NCBI GenBank assembly: GCA_027489335.1
Contig: JAIXZX010000005.1
Coordinates: 87,125 to 151,124 of the forward strand
Source of the DNA: Caulobacteraceae bacterium
GTDB taxonomy: Bacteria; Pseudomonadota; Alphaproteobacteria; Caulobacterales; Caulobacteraceae
DNA length: 64,000 bases
Reading direction: 5' to 3'
Part shown: positions 6,497-25,319 of the stretch, one piece after another
Layout: each line of letters opens with the position of its first letter
Numbering within the stretch: position 1 is the first letter of the stretch
Notes under the pieces: model-generated
Databases searched by the model: none
Seen by the model: only the letters and a program-made list of their open reading frames with translations
What the model was told of the DNA's origin: nothing
Position numbers and translations under genes: made by a program

Positions 6497-7477
6497 GTGG
6501 ATCTGAGCGCCTTCACCAATCCGGCCAACATCCTGACGGTGTTCGTGGCGATAGCCACCTTCGCCACCCTGGTGACCCTGGCCGCGCCGCTGATGCGCAC
6601 CAACAATCTGGAGGCCCGGCTGAAGTCGGTGTCCACCCGGCGGGAGGAGCTGCGGCGCAAGTCGCGCGAAGCCCTGGCGGCCTCCAAGGGCGGCACCCTG
6701 CGCCAGACCGACGAGGGGCTTTACAAGCGCGTGGTCGACCGCCTGCAGCTGTCGCGGCTGCTGGAAGACCCCAAGGTGGTGGACAAGCTGGCCCAGGCCG
6801 GCTTCCGCGGGCCTCGGCCGGTCAGCACCTTCTACTTCTTCCGCTTCGTCCTGCCCTTCGCCTTCGCCGCCTCGGTGGCCTTCTACCTGTTCGTGATCAA
6901 TGACTTCGGCCTCAGCGGCATGAACCGGCTGGCCGCCATCGTGGTCGGTCTGACGCTCGGCTACTACGCGCCCAACATCTACATCAGCAACATCGCCCAG
7001 AAGCGTCGGGAGTCCATCGTCGGGGCCTTCCCCGATGCGCTCGACCTGCTGCTGATCTGCGTGGAATCGGGCATGTCGATCGAGGCGGCCATCCAGAAGG
7101 TCAGCCAGGAGATCGGCGGCTCGTCGATCGAGCTGGCCGAGGAGATGACCCTGCTCACCGCCGAGCTCTCCTACCTGCCTGAGCGTCGTCAGGCCTATGA
7201 GGGTCTGTCGCGGCGGACTAACCATCCGGGCATCAAATCGGTGACTACGGCCATGATCCAGGCTGAACGCTATGGCACGCCGCTGGGCGCGGCCCTGCGG
7301 GTGATGGCCAAAGAGAACCGCGACCTGCGCCTGGCCTCGGCGGAAAAGAAGGCGGCCCAGCTGCCGGCCAAGCTGACCGTGCCGATGATCGTGTTCTTCC
7401 TGCCGGTGCTGTTCCTGGTGATCCTGGGTCCCGCTGTCCTGCGGGTCATGGACATGATGGGACCCGGCGCCTCCTAG
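6497..7477 (+). CDS. tadC: Tad inner-membrane platform protein TadC
   Basis: FPDALDLLLICVESG, QAERYGTP and KLTVPM motifs. Confidence 0.93.
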   Translation: MDLSAFTNPANILTVFVAIATFATLVTLAAPLMRTNNLEARLKSVSTRREELRRKSREALAASKGGTLRQTDEGLYKRVVDRLQLSRLLEDPKVVDKLAQAGFRGPRPVSTFYFFRFVLPFAFAASVAFYLFVINDFGLSGMNRLAAIVVGLTLGYYAPNIYISNIAQKRRESIVGAFPDALDLLLICVESGMSIEAAIQKVSQEIGGSSIELAEEMTLLTAELSYLPERRQAYEGLSRRTNHPGIKSVTTAMIQAERYGTPLGAALRVMAKENRDLRLASAEKKAAQLPAKLTVPMIVFFLPVLFLVILGPAVLRVMDMMGPGAS

Positions 7478-7511
7478 GGGCGCGGCCCGAGATCGGCGCA
7501 GACCTGTCCGG

Positions 7512-8354
7512 CTACTGGACCGAACCCACCGAATCCCAGGAGCGGCCCGCCCCCCCGGCGGCGGTCTGGCTGGCGCTTCTCAGATAGGCCAGGTTGTTGG
7601 CCACCAGTTGCGGCGGCAGGTCCTGGCGGGCCAGGGCCTCGGCTTCGGCCATGCGCCCCTGAAGGCCCAGGATCAGGGCCAGGTTCTGGCGGGTGACCGC
7701 CGTGGCGCCGGGCAGGGCGGCAGCCTGGCGTAGCAGGGCTTCGGCCTCGGCGGCCTGGCCGCGAGCGGCCTGGAACATGGCGAGGTTGGAGAGGACCGCC
7801 GGGTTGTCCGGCGCGAGCTGAACAGCGCGGCGGTGGGCGGTCAGGGCTTCGACGTCGCGCTGGGCCTGCTCATAGGCCATGGCCAGCAGGAAGGGCGCCC
7901 GCCAGTCGCCGGGCGCCAGCGTCTGGGCCTGCAGGGCCGGCGCTACGCCATAGAAACCCTGGCCCCGGGCCAGTTGGGCGCGGGCCAGCTCCAGCAGCAC
8001 CTCGACATTGTCCGGCGCCAGGACCGCCATACGCTGGACCGCCGCAGCCGCCTCTTCGGTCTGGCCGAGACCTCGCAGGGCGCGGGCGAGGCCGAGGCCG
8101 GCCTCCAGGTCGGTGGGATCGATATTGGCTTCCCGCGCCCAGAAGGCCGCCCGCGCCAGGGGATCGAGCCCCCCGGCCAGGGCGCGTTCCTGGGACGAGG
8201 CCTTGCGCGCTGTCGCGGGTGCCGGCTCCGCCGCCGGCGCTTCAGGGGGCGCGGCCTCCTGGGGTTTGGTCCGGAACGAGAAGGCCGCAGCCGGGGAGGC
8301 GCCGACCAGACCGAGCGCGAGGGCGGTTGCGGCGAGGACCGACATGCGACACAT
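7512..8354 (-). CDS. TPR-repeat protein, TadD-like pilus assembly factor
   Basis: Signal peptide from MCRMSVLAA; TPR helices (NPAVLSNLAM, RQNLALILG); convergent with tadC. The true start is far downstream of the 564-aa track ORF start. Confidence 0.75.
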   Translation of the reverse strand: MCRMSVLAATALALGLVGASPAAAFSFRTKPQEAAPPEAPAAEPAPATARKASSQERALAGGLDPLARAAFWAREANIDPTDLEAGLGLARALRGLGQTEEAAAAVQRMAVLAPDNVEVLLELARAQLARGQGFYGVAPALQAQTLAPGDWRAPFLLAMAYEQAQRDVEALTAHRRAVQLAPDNPAVLSNLAMFQAARGQAAEAEALLRQAAALPGATAVTRQNLALILGLQGRMAEAEALARQDLPPQLVANNLAYLRSASQTAAGGAGRSWDSVGSVQ

Positions 8355-8401
8355 GACCAGGGTAGCCTCCAGAGGTTCCGGCTCAGACTGGACCGGTCGC
8401 C

Positions 8402-8417
8402 TTAAAGGAAGCGTTAA
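8402..8417. promoter_or_regulatory. CtrA-like binding site in the tadD-like/pepB divergent promoter
   Basis: TTAA-N8-TTAA, or TTAA-N7-TTTA on the minus strand, versus consensus TTAA-N7-TTAA. Confidence 0.45.
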
Positions 8418-8441
8418 GCATAAGCCGAAGGGCCAGCCGCC

Positions 8442-9818
8442 ATGTCCGACCTGATCCTGGACGCCGCAGACGGCGTCATCGTCCCCGTCCATCTCCTGCG
8501 CGACGCCGATGTGGAGTCCGCCCTCGGCGCCCTGGGCGAGCAGGGTCGGGGCCTGGCGGCGGCGCAGGAGTTCAAGGGCAAGGCCGGCCAGGTCCTGCTG
8601 GTGCCGGACGCCGCCGGCGCCCTGGAGCGGGTGCTCTATGGTGTGGGCCAGGGAAAGGCGTCCGCCGTCCGCGCCCTGGCGGCCAAGCTGCCCCGCGGGA
8701 TCTATGAGATCGTGCGCAAACCCGACGACATCACCGCCGACGAGGCGGCCCTGGCCTTCGCTCTCGGGAGCTACCGGTTCGACCGCTACAAGAAGAAGCC
8801 CGATGAGCGCCCGCGGTTGCTGGCCCGGGGCGCCGATGTGGCCGCCGTCCACGCCATGGCGCACGCCTGTTCGCTTGCCCGGGACATGATCAACACCCCG
8901 CCCAACGACATGGGCCCGCTGCAGATCGAGACGATCGCGCGGGAGATCGCCGAGCAGCACGGCGCCGCGATCACTGTGGTCACCGGGGAGGGCCTGCTGG
9001 AGGCCAACTATCCCGCCGTCCATGCGGTGGGTCGCGCTGCGGCCCCTGGTCGCGAGCCCCGCATGATCGAGATGACCTGGGGCCGCGAAGGCGACCCCGT
9101 GGTGGCGATCATCGGCAAGGGCGTGGTGTTCGATACGGGCGGCCTGGACATCAAGCCGTCGGCCGGCATGCGGTTGATGAAAAAGGACATGGGCGGCGCC
9201 GCCCATGCCCTTGCCCTGGCCCGGATGGTTATGTCCGCGGGCCTACCCGTACGCCTGCTGGTGCTGACGCCCACGGTGGAGAACGCCATTTCCGGCGACG
9301 CCATGCGCCCGGGCGATGTGCTCGATTCCCGCAAGGGCCTGACCATCGAGGTGGGCAACACCGACGCCGAGGGCCGGTTGATCCTGGCCGACGCCCTGAC
9401 CCGGGCCTCCGAATTCTCGCCGGACCTGACCATCGACCTGGCCACCCTGACCGGGGCGGCGCGGGTGGCGCTGGGGCCTCAGCTGCCGCCCTTCATGACC
9501 GATGACGAGGCCCTGGCCGTGGCGATCATGGCGGCGTCGGAGGCGACTGAGGACCCCCTGTGGCGGCTGCCCCTGTGGAAGGGTTATGCCGAGGCCCTGG
9601 AGAGCGACGTCGCCGACCTGAAGAATGATCCCGACGCCTGGGCCCAGGCCGGCGCGGTGACGGCGGGTCTGTTCCTGCAGCGGTTCGCCCCGGAGGGGGC
9701 CTGGGTCCATCTGGACATCTTCGCCTGGAATCCGAAGGGGCGGCCCGGCTATCCGGCCGGCGGCGAGGTGATGGCCATCCGCGCCCTCTTCCGCCTGCTG
9801 CAGGACCGTTACGGGTGA
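8442..9818 (+). CDS. Leucyl aminopeptidase family (M17), PepB-like
   Basis: GKGVVFDTGGLDIK, MKKDMGGAA and NTDAEGRL metal-binding motifs. Confidence 0.95.
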   Translation: MSDLILDAADGVIVPVHLLRDADVESALGALGEQGRGLAAAQEFKGKAGQVLLVPDAAGALERVLYGVGQGKASAVRALAAKLPRGIYEIVRKPDDITADEAALAFALGSYRFDRYKKKPDERPRLLARGADVAAVHAMAHACSLARDMINTPPNDMGPLQIETIAREIAEQHGAAITVVTGEGLLEANYPAVHAVGRAAAPGREPRMIEMTWGREGDPVVAIIGKGVVFDTGGLDIKPSAGMRLMKKDMGGAAHALALARMVMSAGLPVRLLVLTPTVENAISGDAMRPGDVLDSRKGLTIEVGNTDAEGRLILADALTRASEFSPDLTIDLATLTGAARVALGPQLPPFMTDDEALAVAIMAASEATEDPLWRLPLWKGYAEALESDVADLKNDPDAWAQAGAVTAGLFLQRFAPEGAWVHLDIFAWNPKGRPGYPAGGEVMAIRALFRLLQDRYG

Positions 9819-10651
9819 GCCGCGATCCTCGCCTGACGCTCGCCCGTCCTGACCTCGCCGCCGCCGGCCTCGAAGGCGTGGCGCCCGCTGCTCGCTACGG
9901 GCCGACGGCGCCTCGGGCCTGCCGCGTCGCCGCCGCTGCGATCCGCACCGCGCCATCCCCCGGCGCCGGACAGGCCGACCAGCTGCTGCTGGGGGAAATC
10001 TTCGACGTGCTGGAGGCGGCCGACGGCTTCGCCTGGGGCCAAGCGCGCCGGGACGGCTATGTGGGCTATGTCGCCCTGGAGGCCCTGGGTGAGCCGACAG
10101 CGCCCACCCACCGGGTCTCATCCCTGCGGACCTACGGGTTCGAGCGTCCCAGCATCAAGTCGCCGGCCCTTGGCCCCTACAGCCTCAACGCCCTGGTCAG
10201 CGCCGTGGAGGTGGAGGGCCGCTTCGTCCGCGACGTCGGGGGCGCCTGGTTCGTGGACCGTCACCTGGCGCCAGTGGGCCTGGATTTCGCCCTTGATCCG
10301 GCGGGCGTGGCTGAGCAGCATCTGGGGACGCCCTATCTGTGGGGCGGGCGCGAGAGCCTGGGCCTCGACTGTTCGGGGCTGGTGATGCAGGCCCTGCTGG
10401 CCTGCGGCCGAGCCTGTCCCCGGGACACCGACCAGCAGGAGCAGACCTTCTTCCAGGACGCCGATCCAGCGGCCCTGCGGCGAGGGGACCTGGTGTTCTG
10501 GAAGGGCCACGTGGCGATGATGCTGGACGCCGAGCACATCATCCACGCCAACGCCCACCACATGGCCGTGGCGGTGGAGCCGCTGAACACAGCCATCGCC
10601 CGGATCGAGGCCGCCGGCTCCGGCGAACCCACCAGCTACCGTCGGCCCTGA
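9815..10651 (+). CDS. NlpC/P60 (C40) peptidoglycan peptidase with N-terminal SH3-like domains
   Basis: GTPYLWGG, GLDCSGLV and GHVA catalytic motifs. Confidence 0.93.
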   Translation: MSRDPRLTLARPDLAAAGLEGVAPAARYGPTAPRACRVAAAAIRTAPSPGAGQADQLLLGEIFDVLEAADGFAWGQARRDGYVGYVALEALGEPTAPTHRVSSLRTYGFERPSIKSPALGPYSLNALVSAVEVEGRFVRDVGGAWFVDRHLAPVGLDFALDPAGVAEQHLGTPYLWGGRESLGLDCSGLVMQALLACGRACPRDTDQQEQTFFQDADPAALRRGDLVFWKGHVAMMLDAEHIIHANAHHMAVAVEPLNTAIARIEAAGSGEPTSYRRP

Positions 10652-10670
10652 ACCCGATTTGAGCGTCAGC

Positions 10671-10700
10671 CAAAGAAAAAGCCCGGCGCGAGCCGGGCTT
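10671..10700. terminator. Intrinsic terminator between convergent genes
   Basis: AAGCCCGGC-GCGA-GCCGGGCTT hairpin with an A-tract on the left (U-tract on minus strand). Confidence 0.8.
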
Positions 10701-10724
10701 GATCTTGTGTGGCTATGCGCCCGC

Positions 10725-11387
10725 TCAGGTGGCGGCGGGCGCCTCGGCCTCGGCGGCCGGGGCTTCAGCCGGAGCCTCGCCCTCAGCGGCGGGGGCTTCC
10801 TCGCCCTCGACCGGAGCTTCGCCTTCCGCGGCCGGTTCGGCTGCGGGGGCCGGCGCCGGGAACGGAATGGAGCCGCCCATGGAGTGCAGGTAGGCGACCA
10901 CGTTGATCAGCTCCTCGCGGCGCTTCAGGCCGACGAAGGTCATCTTGGTGCCGGCGATGTGCCGCTGAGGCGCTTCAAGGAACTGGCCGAGTTCTTCGTG
11001 CGTCCAGACCGGGTTGGCCGCGGCGAACTCGGTGAAGGCGCCAGAATAGGAATAGCCGGCGTGAGACGCCGGTCGCAGGCCCACAACGCCCCACAGGTTG
11101 GGGCCGGTGCCGTTGGCGCCGCCCTGGGCGATGGAGTGGCAGCTGACGCACTTGGCGAAGCTGGCTTCGCCGGCCGCCACGTCGGCGATCGGCAGAACCG
11201 TGCCCCAGTCGATGGGGGCTTCAGCCGGCGCGCCGCCGCCCGTGTCCTCAGGGATCGCGATCGCATAGCCCGGAGTTTCGGGGGCGTGAGGGGCGAAGAC
11301 GATGGCGGAGGCTTCACGAAGGCCAACTACCGCCAAGCCCGTCGCCAGCACAGCGCCGGCGACCTTGTTGAACGTAAGGTCGCTCAT
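10725..11387 (-). CDS. Membrane-anchored class I cytochrome c (CycM/c2-like)
   Basis: N-terminal TM helix; CVSCH heme motif; GPNLWGVVG; GTKM axial Met; acidic Ala/Pro/Glu tail. Confidence 0.93.
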   Translation of the reverse strand: MSDLTFNKVAGAVLATGLAVVGLREASAIVFAPHAPETPGYAIAIPEDTGGGAPAEAPIDWGTVLPIADVAAGEASFAKCVSCHSIAQGGANGTGPNLWGVVGLRPASHAGYSYSGAFTEFAAANPVWTHEELGQFLEAPQRHIAGTKMTFVGLKRREELINVVAYLHSMGGSIPFPAPAPAAEPAAEGEAPVEGEEAPAAEGEAPAEAPAAEAEAPAAT

Positions 11388-11556
11388 AGTCTTAGATTCG
11401 GCCCTTTCTCAGGCCGGTCGTCGAAACCGGCATACGCGCGGGAATCTCCCGCCCCTTATTGCGCCCGCGTCTCTTACACGCTACCGGCGCTCGTGCAACC
11501 AGCCAGTTGGTCGCTCCCCCCTGCAAGCGCCACGGCCCACAGGCTTCCATCGAATC

Positions 11557-12306
11557 ATGACGCCCATCGTCCTCATTCCCGCCCGCATGGCCGCCACCCG
11601 ACTGCCCGGCAAGCCCCTGGCCGACATAGAGGGCATACCGATGATCGTCCGCGTGCTGCGCCAGGCGCAGGCCGCCGGGATCGGCCCTGTGGCCGTGGCG
11701 GCAGGCGACCCGGAGATCGTCGCGGCGGTGGAGGCGGCGGGCGGTCGGGCGGTGCTGACCGATCCCGATCTGCCCTCGGGCTCTGACCGCATCCTGCGGG
11801 CGCTGGAGGTCCTCGACCCCCAGGGACATCACGACGTGGTCATCAATCTGCAGGGCGATATTCCCTTCGTCGCGCCCCAGGTGGTGGCCGACTGCGCCGA
11901 CCTGTTGGCCAAAGAACCCGGCTGCGACATCTCCACCATCGTGGTGGCCGACAGCGACATCGCCGAGCGGTCCAATCCCGACATCCCCAAGGCGGTGCTG
12001 GCCATGGCGCCGGGCGGCCGCGCGGGCCGGGCGCTCTATTTCACCCGCTCGACCCTCTATGGAGACGGGCCGGTCTGGCTGCATCACGGGGTCTATGGCT
12101 ACCGGCGCGAGGCGCTTGTCCGCTTCACCGCCGCGCAGCCTTCGCCCCTGGAACAGCGGGAGCGGCTGGAGCAGTTGCGCGCCCTGGAGCTGGGCATGAC
12201 CATCTGGGCCGCGGTGATCGATGCGGCGCCGATCTCGGTGGACAACCCCGCCGATCTGGAACGCGCCCGGGCCCACGCCCGCGCCATGACCGAGGGACTT
12301 CGATGA
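11557..12306 (+). CDS. kdsB: 3-deoxy-manno-octulosonate cytidylyltransferase
   Basis: IPARMAATRLPGKPL, SGSDRI, NLQGD and ERLEQLRALE motifs; start corrected to ATG 11557. Confidence 0.95.
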   Translation: MTPIVLIPARMAATRLPGKPLADIEGIPMIVRVLRQAQAAGIGPVAVAAGDPEIVAAVEAAGGRAVLTDPDLPSGSDRILRALEVLDPQGHHDVVINLQGDIPFVAPQVVADCADLLAKEPGCDISTIVVADSDIAERSNPDIPKAVLAMAPGGRAGRALYFTRSTLYGDGPVWLHHGVYGYRREALVRFTAAQPSPLEQRERLEQLRALELGMTIWAAVIDAAPISVDNPADLERARAHARAMTEGLR

Positions 12307-13148
12307 GCCAGGGACGTATCGCCTTCCAGGGCGAACTGGGCGCCAACAGCCATGAGGCCTGCGCCGCCTACTTCCCGGACTATGAGCCTGTCCCTCATCC
12401 GACCTTTGACGAGGCCTTCGAGGCCATCAAGAGCGGCGACTGCCAGCTGGGCATGATCCCGGTGGAGAACTCCATCGCCGGCCGGGTGGCCGACGTCCAT
12501 CACCTGCTGCCCAATTCCGGCCTGAAGATCATCGGCGAGAAGTTCAAGCCGATCCGCTTCCAGCTGATGGTCAATCCCGGCGTGAAGCTGGAGGAGGTCA
12601 CCACCGTCCAGTCCATGGCCATCGCCATCAGCCAGTGCCGCAAGACGGTCAAACGGCTGGGCCTTAAGGCCGAGACGGTGGGCGACACCGCCGGCGCCGC
12701 GCGCATGCTGGCCCAGACGCCAGATCGCACGCGGGCGGCCATCTCACCGGCGCTCGCCGCGGAGATCTACGGGCTGGAGATTCTGCTGCGGGACATCGAG
12801 GACGAGCGGCACAACACCACCCGCTTCCTGGTGATGACCGCCCAGAGCGAGCCTGAACCGCCGCCCTTCACCAGCCCCTGCATCACAAGCTTCGTCTTCC
12901 GGGTGCGCAACCTGCCGGCCGCGCTCTACAAGGCGCTGGGCGGCTTTGCGACCAACGGCGTCAACATGACCAAGCTGGAAAGCTACATGGAGGACGGCGC
13001 CTGGACGGCGACCTTCTTCTACGCCGAGGTGGACGGGCGGCCTGAGGACCGGGGTCTGGCGCTGGCCCTGGAGGAACTGCAGTTCTTCTCCGAGCGCTTC
13101 GAGATCCTCGGTGTCTATCCGGCCGACCCTTTCCGCGCCCGGGCCTGA
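12303..13148 (+). CDS. pheA: Prephenate dehydratase
   Basis: PVENSIAG, NTTRF motif and ACT domain with NMTKLES. Confidence 0.95.
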   Translation: MSQGRIAFQGELGANSHEACAAYFPDYEPVPHPTFDEAFEAIKSGDCQLGMIPVENSIAGRVADVHHLLPNSGLKIIGEKFKPIRFQLMVNPGVKLEEVTTVQSMAIAISQCRKTVKRLGLKAETVGDTAGAARMLAQTPDRTRAAISPALAAEIYGLEILLRDIEDERHNTTRFLVMTAQSEPEPPPFTSPCITSFVFRVRNLPAALYKALGGFATNGVNMTKLESYMEDGAWTATFFYAEVDGRPEDRGLALALEELQFFSERFEILGVYPADPFRARA

Positions 13149-13183
13149 CGGGGCGTTCTTACTGACCCGTGGCTTTTCCAAAG

Positions 13184-13272
13184 CCGTCACCTTCGGGCTT
13201 GACCCGAAGGTCCATGCACACTTGCCCCGCCCCGGTGTTCATGGATGGTCGGGTCAAGCCCGACCATGACGG
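13184..13272. repeat. 89-bp REP doublet (REPIN-like, CGTC-tagged), copy 1
   Basis: Two 38-nt palindromic arms in inverted orientation with a 13-nt spacer; right arm is identical (reverse complement) to 17250-17287. Confidence 0.9.
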
Positions 13273-13304
13273 CGGAGACGGTGGCGCGAGGCTCCTGAAA
13301 GGAC

Positions 13305-14231
13305 TCAGCCCTCCTCGACCCAGGCCTTCAGCAGCTGGTGGGCGATGGCGAGCGGGCCAGGGGCGAAGACGCCCTCGATCTTTCCCGCCAGCAGGTCGCG
13401 GGCCTCATCGCGAGTGAACCAGCGGACCTCCGACAGCTCGGTCTGGTCAGGCGCCGCCTGGTCGTTCTCCACCTCGGCGATCAGGCCGATCATCAGGGAG
13501 GACGGATAGGGCCAGGGCTGGGTGGAGTGATAGCGGACACTGACGGCCTTGAGCGCGGCCTCCTCGGCCAGCTCCCGGGCGCAGGCCTCCTCGATGCTTT
13601 CGCCGGGCTCCACAAAGCCGGCCAGGGCCGAGAACATGCCGGGCGGCCAGGCCTCCTGGCGACCCATCATGCAGCGGTCGCCGAGATAGGGCAGCATGAT
13701 CACGACGGGATCGGTGCGGGGGAAGTGCTCGGCCTTGCAGGTCGGGCACTGCCGCTTCCAGCCCCCGTCGACCACCACGCTGGGTTCGCCGCAGGCCGCG
13801 CAATGGCGGTGGCGACGACGCCATTCGAACATGGACTTGGCGGTGGCCGCGATGGCGGCTTCGGAGCTGGGCAGGCGCAGGGCGATGGCCCGCAGGTCCT
13901 CAAAGGAGCCGACGCCGCGCAGGGGCCCCTCGGCCGGGTCCACCCCACCCTCGATGTCCACGGCGAAGACGGCGGTGTCCTTCCACAGGCCCATGAACAG
14001 AAGCCGCTCAACCCCGCCGGCCAGCTCGTCGGAAATGGTCGCCGGCACATAGGCCAGCTGCACGCCGCCGCCTGCGGTGGTCTCCACCAGGGGGCGACCA
14101 TTCCACAGGACGATGGCCAGCGACTCGGCCGAGGCCTGCATTTCGGCGAGCCAGGCGGTGTCGCCCCGTCGCTCGCTGGCGCGGTCGAGGGGATTGCCGG
14201 CGAAGGTGTTCTGGAAGGCGGTCAGAGGCAT
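13305..14231 (-). CDS. nudC: NAD(+) diphosphatase NudC
   Basis: Zn ribbon HCAACG...CPTC; FPRTDP; Nudix box GFVEPGESIEEACARELAEE; SQPWP-like TQPWPYP. Start corrected to ATG 14231. Confidence 0.95.
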   Translation of the reverse strand: MPLTAFQNTFAGNPLDRASERRGDTAWLAEMQASAESLAIVLWNGRPLVETTAGGGVQLAYVPATISDELAGGVERLLFMGLWKDTAVFAVDIEGGVDPAEGPLRGVGSFEDLRAIALRLPSSEAAIAATAKSMFEWRRRHRHCAACGEPSVVVDGGWKRQCPTCKAEHFPRTDPVVIMLPYLGDRCMMGRQEAWPPGMFSALAGFVEPGESIEEACARELAEEAALKAVSVRYHSTQPWPYPSSLMIGLIAEVENDQAAPDQTELSEVRWFTRDEARDLLAGKIEGVFAPGPLAIAHQLLKAWVEEG

Positions 14232-14257
14232 GATTTGCGTTCTATCTGCGCCCGAGC

Positions 14258-14286
14258 TTGCGCGCACCTGTTTCGATCGCGATATT
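14258..14286 (+). promoter_or_regulatory. Putative housekeeping-sigma promoter of ffs
   Basis: TTGCGC-N17-GATATT immediately upstream of the SRP RNA. Confidence 0.45.
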
Positions 14287-14288
14287 GG

Positions 14289-14390
14289 GGGCGGAGATCG
14301 GCGACGGGCGGAGTCCTCGCCAACCCGGTCAGGTCCGGAAGGAAGCAGCCGTAACGAGTTTCGCTTCGGGTCGTCGTCCGGTCTCCACCC
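14289..14390 (+). ncRNA. ffs: Signal recognition particle RNA (4.5S)
   Basis: Conserved domain IV CAGGTCCGGAAGGAAGCAGCC; closing stem GGAGATCGG/CCGGTCTCC; upstream of dnaX as usual. Ends approximate. Confidence 0.95.
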
Positions 14391-14411
14391 GCTTCCTCTG
14401 ACATTCTCCCC

Positions 14412-16205
<1,794 letters not shown>

Positions 16206-21735: not shown

Positions 21736-22887
21736 TCAGCTGCCGAACCGCGCGAAATAGCGAGCGATCAGCCGCTCATAGACCGCCTGCAGGTCGCGGA
21801 TCTCGGCGACGGGCGCGCGTTCGTCCACCGCATGCATGGTCTTGCCCACGAGGCCCAGCTCCACCACCGGGCACAGAGCGCGGATGAAGCGGGCGTCCGA
21901 CGTGCCGCCGGTGGTGGACAGCTCCGGATCGCGTCCGGCCACGTCGCGCACGGCGGCGGCGACCAGGTCGGTGAAGTCCCCGGGTTCTGTGAGGAAGGCC
22001 TCGCCGCTGATGGACGGGGTGACGCGGACGACGCCGTCGAAGCCCTCGGCCTCAGCCTGGGCCACGCCCTCGATCCAGGCGGCGAGGTCGGCGCCCTTGT
22101 GGCCGGGATTGAAGCGAATGTTCACCCGGGCCCTGGCCTGTGCGGGAATGACATTGGTGGCGGCGTTGCCCACGTCCACCGTGGTGATCTCGAGGTTAGA
22201 GGGCTGGAAGCCCGTATAGCCCTCGTCCAGCACATGGGCGTCCAGCGCCGCCAGGATGCGCACCAGCACCGGGACGGGATTGGCCGCCCGGTGGGGATAG
22301 GCCACATGGCCCTGCCGCCCCTCGACCAGGATTTCGGCGTTGATCGAGCCGCGGCGGCCGATCTTGATCATGTCGCCGAAGGTCTCGGCGCTGGTCGGCT
22401 CGCCGACCACGCAGTGATCGACGATCTCGCCCTCGGCCATCAGCGCCTCGACCACCTTCTTGGTGCCGTCGATGGCGATCCCTTCCTCGTCCCCGGTGAT
22501 CAGGAAGGACAGGGAGCCGGTGACGTCGCCGCGGGCCAGGGCGGCTGAGGCCGCGGCGGCGAAGGCGGCCAGCGCGCTCTTCATGTCCACCGCGCCGCGG
22601 CCGATCAGGATGTCGTCGACGATCTTGGCGGCGAAGGCGTCATGGCTCCAGGCGCCGGCGTCGCCCACCGGCACCACGTCGGTGTGGCCGGCGAAACAGA
22701 GGTTCGGCCGCGCGGTTCCCCAGCGGGCATAGAGGTTCTCGATCTCCCCGAACCGCATCCGGCGGCAGGCAAAGCCCAGCTTGGCGAGTTCGGCCTGCAG
22801 CACGTCCATGGCGCCGGCGTCGGCCGGAGTGACGGAGGGGCGGCGGATCAGATCCTGGGTCAGGCGGACGGGGTCGAGGCTGCTCAT
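21736..22887 (-). CDS. dapE: Succinyl-diaminopimelate desuccinylase
   Basis: FAGHTDVVP, GRGAVDMK, GDEEG, GRRGS and GGTSDARF motifs; start corrected to ATG 22887. Confidence 0.97.
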   Translation of the reverse strand: MSSLDPVRLTQDLIRRPSVTPADAGAMDVLQAELAKLGFACRRMRFGEIENLYARWGTARPNLCFAGHTDVVPVGDAGAWSHDAFAAKIVDDILIGRGAVDMKSALAAFAAAASAALARGDVTGSLSFLITGDEEGIAIDGTKKVVEALMAEGEIVDHCVVGEPTSAETFGDMIKIGRRGSINAEILVEGRQGHVAYPHRAANPVPVLVRILAALDAHVLDEGYTGFQPSNLEITTVDVGNAATNVIPAQARARVNIRFNPGHKGADLAAWIEGVAQAEAEGFDGVVRVTPSISGEAFLTEPGDFTDLVAAAVRDVAGRDPELSTTGGTSDARFIRALCPVVELGLVGKTMHAVDERAPVAEIRDLQAVYERLIARYFARFGS

Positions 22888-22955
22888 GATCAAGCAGTTA
22901 GCCTCCGCGGCGCCTGGGGGCAATGGCGGCGGCGGCGCAGGTCGCGCCCAGGCTG

Positions 22956-23028
22956 GGTTACTTAATCCTGAGTAATCATCTCAGTCTAGGGAGGTCGAAC
23001 ATTCAAGATCGGCAAGCGATGTGATCGC
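22956..23028. promoter_or_regulatory. Two imperfect palindromes (candidate operators) in the dapE / exonuclease-like divergent promoter
   Basis: GGTTACTTA-ATCC-TGAGTAATC (22956-22977) and GCGAT-GTG-ATCGC (23016-23028) in an AT-richer gap. Confidence 0.3.
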
Positions 23029-23054
23029 ATAGGTTCAGTAAAAGGAGCTGGCCT

Positions 23055-23687
23055 ATGAACATCGCTTCCCTATTTGGTCGTGGCGGCGCGACTCTGGACG
23101 CCTCGCGAATTGATCTCGCCCTGCGGATGGCCAAATCGGCTCGTCATCCGGCGCCGCCCCGGCCATTCGGGCGACGATCGTTCCGGCCCAATATCGCGGG
23201 CGGCGACCGGCTTTACTTCAATGTCCGCTCTCTGGGCGTGCAGGGGCGCGATCATGTGCTCCAGTACGCCTTCGCCGATGATCGGGGGAATGTGGTGATG
23301 AGCGCCTTTGTGCGGGCGGCGGCGCCTGGCGCCCTGATGCTGGGAACGCCGCCGGGAGATCTGGTCACCGAACCCCTGGACGAAGCCCGGTTCGATGACA
23401 TCGCCGCGCGGATCTGCGCCGGGGCCACGCTGGTGGCCTATCAGAGGGTGCTGCAGGGCGGGCTTCTGCCTCAGGGCGCTGCGGGTTCGGCGGCGAGTAT
23501 CGACTGCGCCTGGCGGCGGTTTCAGCAGACGGCGCGCCGGCTTGGCCTGGCTGCGCCGGCCCGGTCGCCGGTCACCCTGCAGGACGCCCTGGCCCTGGCC
23601 CGGTTGCCGCCCCTGGAGTCGGAGGACGCGGCCCTGCGGGCGCTGTCTATCAGGGCGCTCTGGCGCTGGATGGACGAGGCGGACTAG
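23055..23687 (+). CDS. Hypothetical protein, probable catalytically inactive DEDD/DnaQ-like exonuclease fold
   Basis: AAGGAG RBS; pattern aligns with ExoI/II/III motifs but the acidic residues are replaced. CDS confident, fold is inference. Confidence 0.65.
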   Translation: MNIASLFGRGGATLDASRIDLALRMAKSARHPAPPRPFGRRSFRPNIAGGDRLYFNVRSLGVQGRDHVLQYAFADDRGNVVMSAFVRAAAPGALMLGTPPGDLVTEPLDEARFDDIAARICAGATLVAYQRVLQGGLLPQGAAGSAASIDCAWRRFQQTARRLGLAAPARSPVTLQDALALARLPPLESEDAALRALSIRALWRWMDEAD

Positions 23688-23697
23688 GGGGCCAGGC

Positions 23698-24066
23698 TCA
23701 GGCCCGCGGCGCCACGGCGTCGGCGAACAGGGGCTTGAGCTCGGCGAAGAAGGTTTCCAGGCCATAGCGGTCGGCCAGGGTGAACAGGCCGTCGGCGTCC
23801 CGGTTGAGATAGCCATTGGCGGCCAGCAGCAGCAGTTTGCGGCGGGCGCTCTCCCGGGGAATGCCGGTGATTTCCGACAGGCTGAGCGCATTCAGCCCCC
23901 GCGACTGGCGGGGAACGCCGGCTTCGCCGTTGATCCTGTCGGCCAACTCCGAAAGCAGGAAGGTCAGATAGAGGACGTACTGGTCGAGGTCCCCATCGAA
24001 CCGCGCCCGGGTGCGGATCAGGACCGACGAGAACTGTCCGCTCCACCGATAGAACAGACGCTGCAT
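23698..24066 (-). CDS. Hypothetical protein with C-terminal winged helix-turn-helix
   Basis: GLNALSLSEITGIPRESARRKLLLLAANGYL HTH pattern; start uncertain (ATG 24066 preferred over GTG 24204). Confidence 0.7.
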   Translation of the reverse strand: MQRLFYRWSGQFSSVLIRTRARFDGDLDQYVLYLTFLLSELADRINGEAGVPRQSRGLNALSLSEITGIPRESARRKLLLLAANGYLNRDADGLFTLADRYGLETFFAELKPLFADAVAPRA

Positions 24067-24174
24067 ATCCAGCTCAAGGGACGCCGGCCGGTTGTCGGAC
24101 CAGCCGCGCGGTTCAGGCGCGACGACGGATAGAGATTCTCCACCTTCGTCTCTTGCTGACCCCGGTCGGCCAGA

Positions 24175-24191
24175 GGTTAACGAAAACATAA
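24175..24191 (-). promoter_or_regulatory. CtrA-like site upstream of the wHTH gene
   Basis: TTAT-N7-TTAACC on the minus strand, one mismatch to consensus. Confidence 0.5.
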
Positions 24192-24294
24192 CAGTCGCTC
24201 CCACAGTTGGTATCGTTACAAAATCAACGAGAAGTTGTCACTTTTTGGGCGAGGCGAAAGGCGGCTGTATTCAGATTTCCGTGTTGTCTTAAGG

Positions 24295-24311
24295 GTTAGA
24301 CTTTCTTAACC
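24295..24311 (+). promoter_or_regulatory. Degenerate CtrA-like site
   Basis: GTTAGAC-TTTC-TTAACC; aligns with 34482-34498 and 37743-37759. Confidence 0.4.
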
Positions 24312-24447
24312 AAGAATAAAGGTGTCGCCGCTTCCTGCAGGCAACCTAGTCTACTCGCCCATAACGGGAAACAAGCGCCGCGCTCAAAATGAGCGGACAG
24401 CCGTTCGGGCGGCGTCGCGCCGGGATTGCGTGCAGGGGATGACGCAG

Positions 24448-24469
24448 AAGGCGGCGAAGGCCGCCTTTG
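24448..24469. terminator. Hairpin terminator downstream of dapD (possibly bidirectional)
   Basis: AAGGCGGC-GAAG-GCCGCCTT followed by T. Confidence 0.6.
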
Positions 24470-24479
24470 GAGACCGATG

Positions 24480-25318
<839 letters not shown>

Positions 25319-25319
<1 letters not shown>

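Follow-up and report, generated by a model that had tools for sequence, protein, structure and literature searches.

Proteins that keep the fold of a DEDD exonuclease without its catalytic residues are documented, to our knowledge, mainly in eukaryotes (Exuperantia, PML-PXL and Maelstrom) or as silent domains of polymerases, and we know of no described free-standing bacterial family of dead DEDD nucleases. The eukaryotic pseudo-exonucleases Exuperantia (Exu) and PML-1 PXL bind nucleic acids, either RNA or G-rich oligonucleotides (PMC13659232), and inactivated DnaQ-like domains occur in bacteria inside the polymerases PolA2 and PolB2/G2 (PMC12926913). Here, we analyse a stretch of 64,000 nucleotides from a Caulobacteraceae bacterium (contig JAIXZX010000005.1, positions 87,125 to 151,124), which we call the window. 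It contains a gene of 210 codons, hereafter X, whose product has a predicted DnaQ-like fold and, in our alignments, none of the residues required for two-metal catalysis. X is accompanied by a winged-helix gene, hereafter H, and together they make up an accessory, co-inherited two-gene module of Caulobacteraceae. We read X as a repurposed non-catalytic DnaQ-type protein that acts by binding and is coupled to H, and we give this composite reading a probability of about one half.

X starts at an ATG with an AGGAG Shine-Dalgarno sequence 8 nt 5' of it and encodes 210 residues. A search of 5.8 billion proteins returned 145 homologues, nearly all of 200-215 residues, every one labelled 'hypothetical', and all from Phenylobacterium or Caulobacteraceae. 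Among 1.8 billion cluster representatives, an exhaustive phmmer search matched only 33 clusters. X was absent from 300 other alphaproteobacterial genomes taken from across the class, with no family member outside the order. Neither X nor 16 diverse members of its family matched Pfam or NCBIfam, the PADLOC and PHROGs scans of X gave no match to anti-phage defence or phage gene families, and a sequence-profile search of the PDB returned chance lectin matches only (E-values above 0.3). We conclude that X is a genuine gene, maintained by purifying selection and not decaying, because it belongs to a conserved family, its ratio of nonsynonymous to synonymous substitution rates (dN/dS) is 0.16 when compared with an 89%-identical orthologue, and its GC content is like that of the surrounding genome.

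The structure of X was modelled with AlphaFold2 using 30 homologues. The mean predicted local distance difference test score (pLDDT) is 76, with most of the core (residues 51-210) between 80 and 94, and two of the five models were poor. The model has strands b1 (52-63), b2 (66-74) and b3 (80-88), a helix (110-121), strand b4 (125-128), a helix (140-145), strand b5 (148-151), and three final helices (152-163, 175-181, and 192-209). This b1-b2-b3-aA-b4-a-b5-a-a-a order is DnaQ-like and matches the one described for the DEDD family (PMC13659232). Foldseek also places the model in the RNase H-like/DnaQ-like fold. Its top matches in the PDB are 9qpc (the exonuclease domain of a DNA polymerase), 2gui (the epsilon subunit of Escherichia coli), NrnC, the exonuclease domain of Staphylococcus aureus DinG, and TREX1, with probabilities of 0.92-1.0 and E-values of 2e-3 to 3e-2. 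The match to 2gui has a probability of 1.0 and a template modelling score of 0.56 normalised to the target. Among viral models (BFVD), phage DnaQ-like proteins came first, including an exonuclease-domain protein of a Caulobacter phage. The C-terminus of X is the last helix of the exonuclease fold (192-209), and the only extra region is the disordered N-terminal tail. This tail has a hydrophobic N-terminal motif, a weak amphipathic helix (RIDxALR) and a charge of about +5, and it is absent from the active relatives described below.

Direct sequence comparisons with generic DnaQ proteins were not informative. When the X family was compared by hhalign with an alignment of 30 proteobacterial DnaQ/Orn-type domains, the results were not significant (P of 0.06-0.66), one local alignment being in the correct Exo II register, and hmmalign of X to the generic DnaQ hidden Markov model (HMM) returned no alignment. 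X also scores below the gathering threshold of the Pfam RNase_T HMM (PF00929), so that its homology to this family is transitive only. The bridge is a 171-residue protein that we found by scanning 200 genomes of the same order, in a genome of a sister family (G496). This protein matches the X family profile (hmmsearch E-values of 3e-12 to 4e-14; hhalign probability of 95.8%, E-value of 7e-9, over 140 columns) and also matches RNase_T at an E-value of 3e-16, above the cut-off. It carries the motifs of an active-looking enzyme: MRTVFLDTETTG ... VVIYNSGFDTRFFP ... AIDCAMLRF ... AHRALADALATRAVWNWME. A second cousin, from an alphaproteobacterial metagenome-assembled genome, is 62% identical to the G496 protein, matches the X profile at 4e-10, and keeps all the catalytic residues. 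BLASTP aligns X with these active cousins at 28-31% identity over approximately 150 residues. X is thus a divergent branch of one particular clade of small DEDDh exonucleases, because cousins of the G496 type match its profile, while the housekeeping DnaQ and further small exonucleases fail to. The initial annotation of the window, made by eye from the sequence, had recognised a DEDD/DnaQ fold lacking the two-metal carboxylates. The structural model and the bridge alignment both agree with it, and the profile comparison with DnaQ-like proteins that it proposed as a check succeeded for the bridge and failed for generic DnaQ.

These results bear on the reading in which X is a decaying pseudogene or its fold assignment an artefact. 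The failure of generic DnaQ profiles to detect X and the poor quality of part of the models speak for it. They are outweighed by the low dN/dS, by the 145 intact homologues with invariant motifs, and by the bridge homology, which disfavours an artefact because it is independent of structure prediction. We regard this reading as refuted and hardly credible. The claim of a pseudo-nuclease, as opposed to a decaying copy, fared well in its place: DEDD-fold matches were found, the close homologues lack the DEDD residues as well, and selection on X is not relaxed.

To follow the catalytic residues, we aligned the family (30 close and 16 distant homologues) with active-looking cousins, three of them for Exo III, using hhalign and MAFFT. 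The Exo I motif F-L-D-T-E-T-T-G of the cousins corresponds to Y-F-(A/N)-V-R-S-x-G in the X family, and the Exo II motif V-I-Y-N-x-x-F-D-T-R-F-F-P corresponds to L-V-A-(Y/F)-x-R-V-L-Q-x-G-L-L-P, in which R131 and G136 are family-specific and P139 is common with the active cousins. At Exo III, both programs align A-H-R-A-L-A-D-x-x-A-T-R with A-(L/M/V)-R-A-L----(A/S)-I-R; the deletion that removes the Asp spans four residues, about one helical turn. An ungapped register (His to E190 and Asp to R195, as in the initial annotation) is a less likely alternative with fewer identities, and the His and Asp are lost in either register. No member of the two family sets keeps the D-x-E, the Exo II Asp or the Exo III His and Asp, none has an acidic residue at positions 52-60 (Exo I) or 125-139 (Exo II), and there is no conserved His or Tyr between residues 180 and 200. 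We considered D191 as a retained Exo III Asp and rejected it because it aligns with a Gly in the cousins; R195 was likewise rejected as a replacement of the Asp, since it is the ancestral Arg of the H-R-A-L of active cousins.

Loss of the DEDDh metal ligands abolishes two-metal catalysis, as in the D12A/E14A variant of epsilon. On these alignments, two-metal hydrolysis by X is excluded, because the four metal-binding carboxylates and the general-base His are all gone, and the catalytic loss is family-wide and ancient. The strings on which the initial annotation relied are all present in X (LYFNVRSLG at residues 53-61, VLQYAFADDRGNVVMSAFVR at 68-87, LVAYQRVLQ at 126-134, IDCAWRRF at 149-156, and SEDAALRALSI at 189-199). 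Its registers for Exo I (Asp to N56, Glu to R58) and Exo II (Asp to Q134) agree with the bridge alignment, which replaces its Exo III register by the one given above. The proposal that Arg stands in for the metal ligands is therefore right for R58, in place of the Glu, and wrong for R195. Conservation of the proposed substitutions is equally uneven: R58 is invariant in the core family, position 56 holds Ala in most members and N, H, S, Y or T in others, and E190 is not conserved.

The positions conserved in at least 90% of the X family fall into two sets. Those shared with the cousins form the scaffold (P107, G123, V127, P139, C151, A152, R155, F156, L175, G183, A193, R195-L197, R200, W203, W205, and M206). 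Those equally conserved in X and different in both cousins are R58, H67, Q70 (Glu in the cousins), Y71, D75, R77, C121, R131, Q134, G136, W153 (Met in the cousins), R154 (Leu in the cousins), and D191. Many of the latter fall in the Exo I segment, the Exo II segment and the exit of b5, which are active-site elements of DnaQ-like enzymes; R131, W153, R154 and Q70, around the old pocket, had been overlooked initially. Change followed by freezing at the old catalytic motifs would be the signature of a new function there and not of mere loss. X, then, derives from a small DEDDh 3'-5' exonuclease of the DnaQ type; it is catalytically dead, has kept the fold and has gained a basic tail. We suggest that its pocket may have been rebuilt into a binding site, because the residues that changed and then froze (R58, Q70, R131, Q134, G136, W153, and R154) sit on former active-site elements.

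The new function could instead be enzymatic. Maelstrom, a DEDD-fold protein without the DEDD residues, cleaves RNA and offers a precedent for a new active site on the old scaffold, comparable to its ECHC set. Candidate residues in X are C121, C151, H67, D75, D76 and D191, of which C121, H67, D75 and D191 are conserved and all four family-specific. However, C151 is inherited from the active cousins, H67 and C121 are lost in the most distant members, and C121 and C151 would lie at opposite ends of neighbouring strands, judging by the fold topology. No known catalytic constellation is recognisable among these residues, and we consider a new enzyme very unlikely. One Foldseek match of X, chain F of 9nhs, comes from a piRNA complex that contains Maelstrom among its subunits.

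H, which the initial annotation had overlooked, lies tail-to-tail with X, the two stops being 10 nt apart (23685-23700). Its open reading frame spans 23698-24204 on the reverse strand, and translation probably starts at the ATG at 24189, giving 163 residues that are conserved from about residue 35. No family HMM matches H above threshold, HTH_IclR alone giving an E-value of 0.031, below its cut-off. The AlphaFold2 model has helices at residues 36-62, 68-88, 101-108 and 112-124, a wing (128-138), and a last helix (144-159). This is a winged helix-turn-helix flanked by dimerisation helices, in agreement with the Foldseek matches to MexR, RovA and SlyA (MarR type) and to BlcR and PcaR (IclR-type N-domains), at probabilities of 0.99-1.0.

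A homologue of H adjoins X in all the loci examined except in the most distant member (P0148), and the 13 of 121 Caulobacteraceae genomes that carry X are exactly those with a strong H match (E-value below 1e-20). The usual arrangement elsewhere is also tail-to-tail, with stops 5-130 nt apart or an overlap of 27-45 nt, the overlap being seen in two other genera (L056 and L057). Rfam and promoter/terminator scans of the insert found nothing. The transcripts of X and H probably overlap, because no terminator was detected between the two genes, and such conserved convergent overlapping transcription could cause mutual interference. Elsewhere in the same genome (G000), on contig C5 outside the window (L071, 4200-5703), there is a paralogue of H of 153 residues (hhalign probability of 98% to the H family). 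It overlaps by 4 nt an orphan open reading frame of 236 residues, after which comes a DUF1153 gene. The orphan, which has around 20 homologues in Phenylobacterium and Brevundimonas, none of them annotated, matches X weakly (P=0.018) in a consistent register. This pair may be a second, more divergent module.

The regions upstream of both genes contain similar palindromes. The pattern CCC(A/G)-N3/4-(T/C)GGG, e.g., GCCCAGAATGGGC, occurs between 60 and 130 nt upstream of X in 7 of the 11 loci, whereas 0.35 would be expected. A similar palindrome is found upstream of H, at approximately 170-200 nt in several loci; besides the window, L003, L060 and L056 have one. These palindromes are plausible operators for H, which would link the two convergent genes. 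The candidate operator upstream of X is also 23 nt from the annotated TTG start of dapE. When the regions 5' of the two genes were searched for exact CtrA, alphaproteobacterial LexA, DnaA and GANTC motifs, only scattered matches resulted. The region upstream of H also has a conserved ACTGTGG, after which comes a TTAA-N6/7-TTAA(C) box that resembles a CtrA box (in the window, L003, L060 and L062). The copies in the window are TTATGTTTTCGTTAAC (24176-24207, overlapping the annotated ATG of H) and, further upstream, GGTTAAGAAAGTCTAACC (24294-24311). The coordinates of these sites and of the other features are collected in Table 1.

Table 1. Coordinates, within the window, of X, H, their motifs and the flanking genes.
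Feature	Position	Strand	Evidence or remark
X, pseudo-exonuclease gene, predicted DnaQ-like fold, catalytic residues all lost	23055..23687	+	open reading frame, Shine-Dalgarno sequence, 145 homologues, AlphaFold2 model, Foldseek, bridge homology, dN/dS
N-terminal tail of X (residues 1-50), predicted disordered, basic	23055..23204	+	pLDDT below 55, charge, alignments
Exo I equivalent, LYFNVRSLG (residues 53-61)	23211..23237	+	Asp to N56, Glu to R58
Exo II equivalent, LVAYQRVLQGGLLP	23430..23471	+	Asp to Q134; most conserved motif of the family
b5 and next helix, IDCAWRRF (residues 149-156)	23499..23522	+	C151, R155, F156 inherited from active cousins; W153, R154 family-specific
Exo III equivalent, SEDAALRAL-SIRALW	23619..23663	+	His to L194; Asp in four-residue deletion between L197 and S198
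H, MarR/IclR-like winged-helix gene	23698..24189	-	weak HTH_IclR match, AlphaFold2, Foldseek, adjacency, co-occurrence
Palindrome GCCCAGGCTGGG, candidate operator, 98-109 nt upstream of X	22946..22957		pattern CCC[AG]-N3/4-[TC]GGG
Similar palindrome GCCCATAACGGG, about 170 nt upstream of H	24357..24368		also upstream of H in L003, L060 and L056
Insert of 1552 bp, dapD stop to dapE start (X, H and upstream regions)	22929..24479		blastn/tblastn against G057
dapE (M20 succinyl-diaminopimelate desuccinylase), left flank, divergent from X	21736..22923	-	profile match
dapD (tetrahydrodipicolinate N-succinyltransferase), right flank	24480..25319	-	profile match

The module is an insert between dapD and dapE, both genes of the lysine pathway. 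The empty site is seen in a congener (G057, DapD 97% identical at the amino acid level), where the two genes are around 25 bp apart. The interruption of the dapD-dapE pair noted initially is thus correct, except that the insert holds two genes and not one; the accessory, insert-like nature of the pair had gone unnoticed. The order dapE-X-H-dapD recurs in several genera, at times with further inserted genes. In three other genera, the module lies elsewhere: with topoisomerase IB and dnaE2-imuB, beside yccV and ppx, or beside a two-component system. In the first of these loci (L059 of genome G068, 7147-14694), X and H are flanked on one side by a gene for a bacterial topoisomerase IB and on the other by the 3' end of the error-prone polymerase operon dnaE2-imuB, a neighbourhood of note for a protein that derives from an exonuclease of the proofreading type. 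The dapE-dapD interval is a hot spot, in which some other Caulobacteraceae genomes also have cupin, DUF805 and haemolysin-type calcium-binding protein genes (L062 and L064). As the insert splits dapE from dapD in the window, dapE must be driven from the 131-nt region (22924-23054) that it shares divergently with X. An ordinary dnaQ is present elsewhere in this genome.

Could X and H be a selfish or defensive accessory module (addiction, abortive infection or anti-phage) derived from a mobile element? Their distribution is patchy, since X is present in 13 of the 121 Caulobacteraceae genomes sampled (7 of 27 genera) and in only 2 of the 8 sampled from the genus of the window; Caulobacter crescentus NA1000 also appears to lack the module. 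The insert is clean, a close relative having the site unoccupied, and other genera carry the module at different loci. The active cousin in G496 (L078, 277-6340) lies among genes for ArdC (anti-restriction), a 767-residue delta'-like AAA+ protein and a DUF2786/DUF7168 protein, of which ArdC and DUF2786/DUF7168 are typical of conjugative elements; its setting is probably an integrative conjugative element. Yet X and H match nothing in PADLOC or PHROGs, X was not found by tblastn in phage and plasmid collections, and there is no toxin-like partner. No integrase was seen, the ends of the insert show no convincing terminal direct or inverted repeats or target-site duplication, and we dropped the idea of a GC anomaly, since the coding parts of the insert have the GC content of the genome. 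At the shared dap site, the identity of X drops in step with that of dapE. This trend fits old vertical descent with many losses, although exchange between relatives through the conserved flanks is possible. We judge a selfish or defensive module to be distinctly unlikely.

A binding function may also concern proteins only. X would then be an adaptor or decoy with neither a small-molecule nor a nucleic-acid ligand, whose epsilon-like surface or tail binds H, as an anti- or co-repressor, or binds a replisome or repair partner of genuine exonucleases (Pol III alpha, the clamp, or DnaE2/ImuB). A disordered tail with a conserved hydrophobic N-terminus and a short helix is typical of docking peptides, conservation is strong in the b2-b3 hairpin (QYAFxDDRGNVV), the core carries little net charge, and the module is beside dnaE2-imuB in one genome. 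However, this adjacency is probably a coincidence, because the context differs in other genera. The N-terminal motif departs from the clamp-binding consensus QL[SD]LF, and the frozen family-specific changes are at the former catalytic motifs and not on the outer surface. We hold this adaptor to be unlikely.

We therefore return to a repurposed protein that would bind, and not cut, through its remodelled pocket, its basic tail or both. A plausible ligand would bear a phosphate or be aromatic, such as the 3' end of a nucleic acid or a (di)nucleotide, and a peptide of a partner is also possible. The output of X would probably be coupled to H, and binding of H to the palindromes upstream of both genes would make the pair a small sensor-regulator or effector-regulator system. 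Several observations weigh against such a function. The core of X is near neutral (mean net charge of -1.9 over 30 members), which disfavours generic binding of nucleic acids. The grouping of the X-specific residues in the old pocket would follow from the fold topology, not from coordinates, and the palindrome pattern was defined post hoc. X and H are not an operon, and the case for their coupling consists only of co-occurrence and shared upstream motifs. Finally, nothing in PADLOC or PHROGs points to the type of system that the pair might be. A bolder version is that the former two-metal site of a mobile-element exonuclease has become a metal-free receptor, whose pocket of Arg, Trp and Gln (R58, R131, Q134, W153, and R154) takes up a 3' end or else a small nucleotide, for instance a second messenger or a di- or oligonucleotide, and that its occupancy is passed on to H. 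X and H would then represent a bacterial signalling pair of a new type, in which the pseudo-nuclease sensor and the winged-helix output are wired by convergent overlapping transcription and shared palindromic operators. We regard this elaborate version as unlikely.

The X family gives around 150 'hypothetical proteins' a content that can be named. It is a tractable case of neofunctionalisation, with a traceable clade of active ancestors, frozen changes at the active site and a winged-helix partner. Being only two small genes, X and H can be deleted or transplanted in laboratory strains of the Caulobacter family, and the active cousins allow comparisons by residue swaps. Should the pocket bind a nucleotide or a 3' end, X would represent a sensor of a new type; otherwise, X and H would be a lineage-restricted accessory pair.

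Among known systems, the closest to X is the clade of its active cousins, small stand-alone DEDDh exonucleases that are unnamed beyond Pfam RNase_T and share the pattern 'FLDTETTG ... VIYN(A/S)xFDTRFFP ... (D/S)CAMLRF ... HRALAD..ATRA(L/V)WxWM(D/E)'. X has in common with them the profile homology, the size of the core and residues P107, G123, P139, C151, R155, F156, R195-A196-L197, R200, W203, W205 and M206. The cousins keep the D-x-E, the Exo II Asp and the H-x4-D, whereas X has none of these, adds a basic tail of 50 residues and has a winged-helix partner; the G496 cousin is not beside H. DnaQ, the epsilon subunit of Pol III (DEDDh, PF00929), has the same fold as X according to the Foldseek match to 2gui, but X lacks profile-level similarity to it, its catalytic residues and its C-terminal alpha-binding tail. 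Like Exu and PML-PXL, X keeps the exonuclease fold in a conserved gene that has lost the catalytic carboxylates. Unlike them, it is bacterial, unrelated in sequence and made of a single domain with a disordered tail and without their SAM-like subdomain. Maelstrom (MAEL domain) resembles X in its DnaQ-like fold without DEDD residues and in having a conserved Cys and His. However, its ECHC zinc/catalytic set is not recognisable in X, where C151 comes from the active ancestors and C121 and H67 are missing from some members. The domains of PolA2 and PolB2/G2 are, like X, bacterial and DnaQ-like with a lost active site, but X is free-standing and paired with a gene resembling a transcription factor. 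Pseudo-exonucleases as a kind are thus already established, and what X adds to them is a free-standing bacterial family, orphan in sequence, with an active sister clade that can be identified, a basic tail gained by X and a winged-helix gene that almost always accompanies it.

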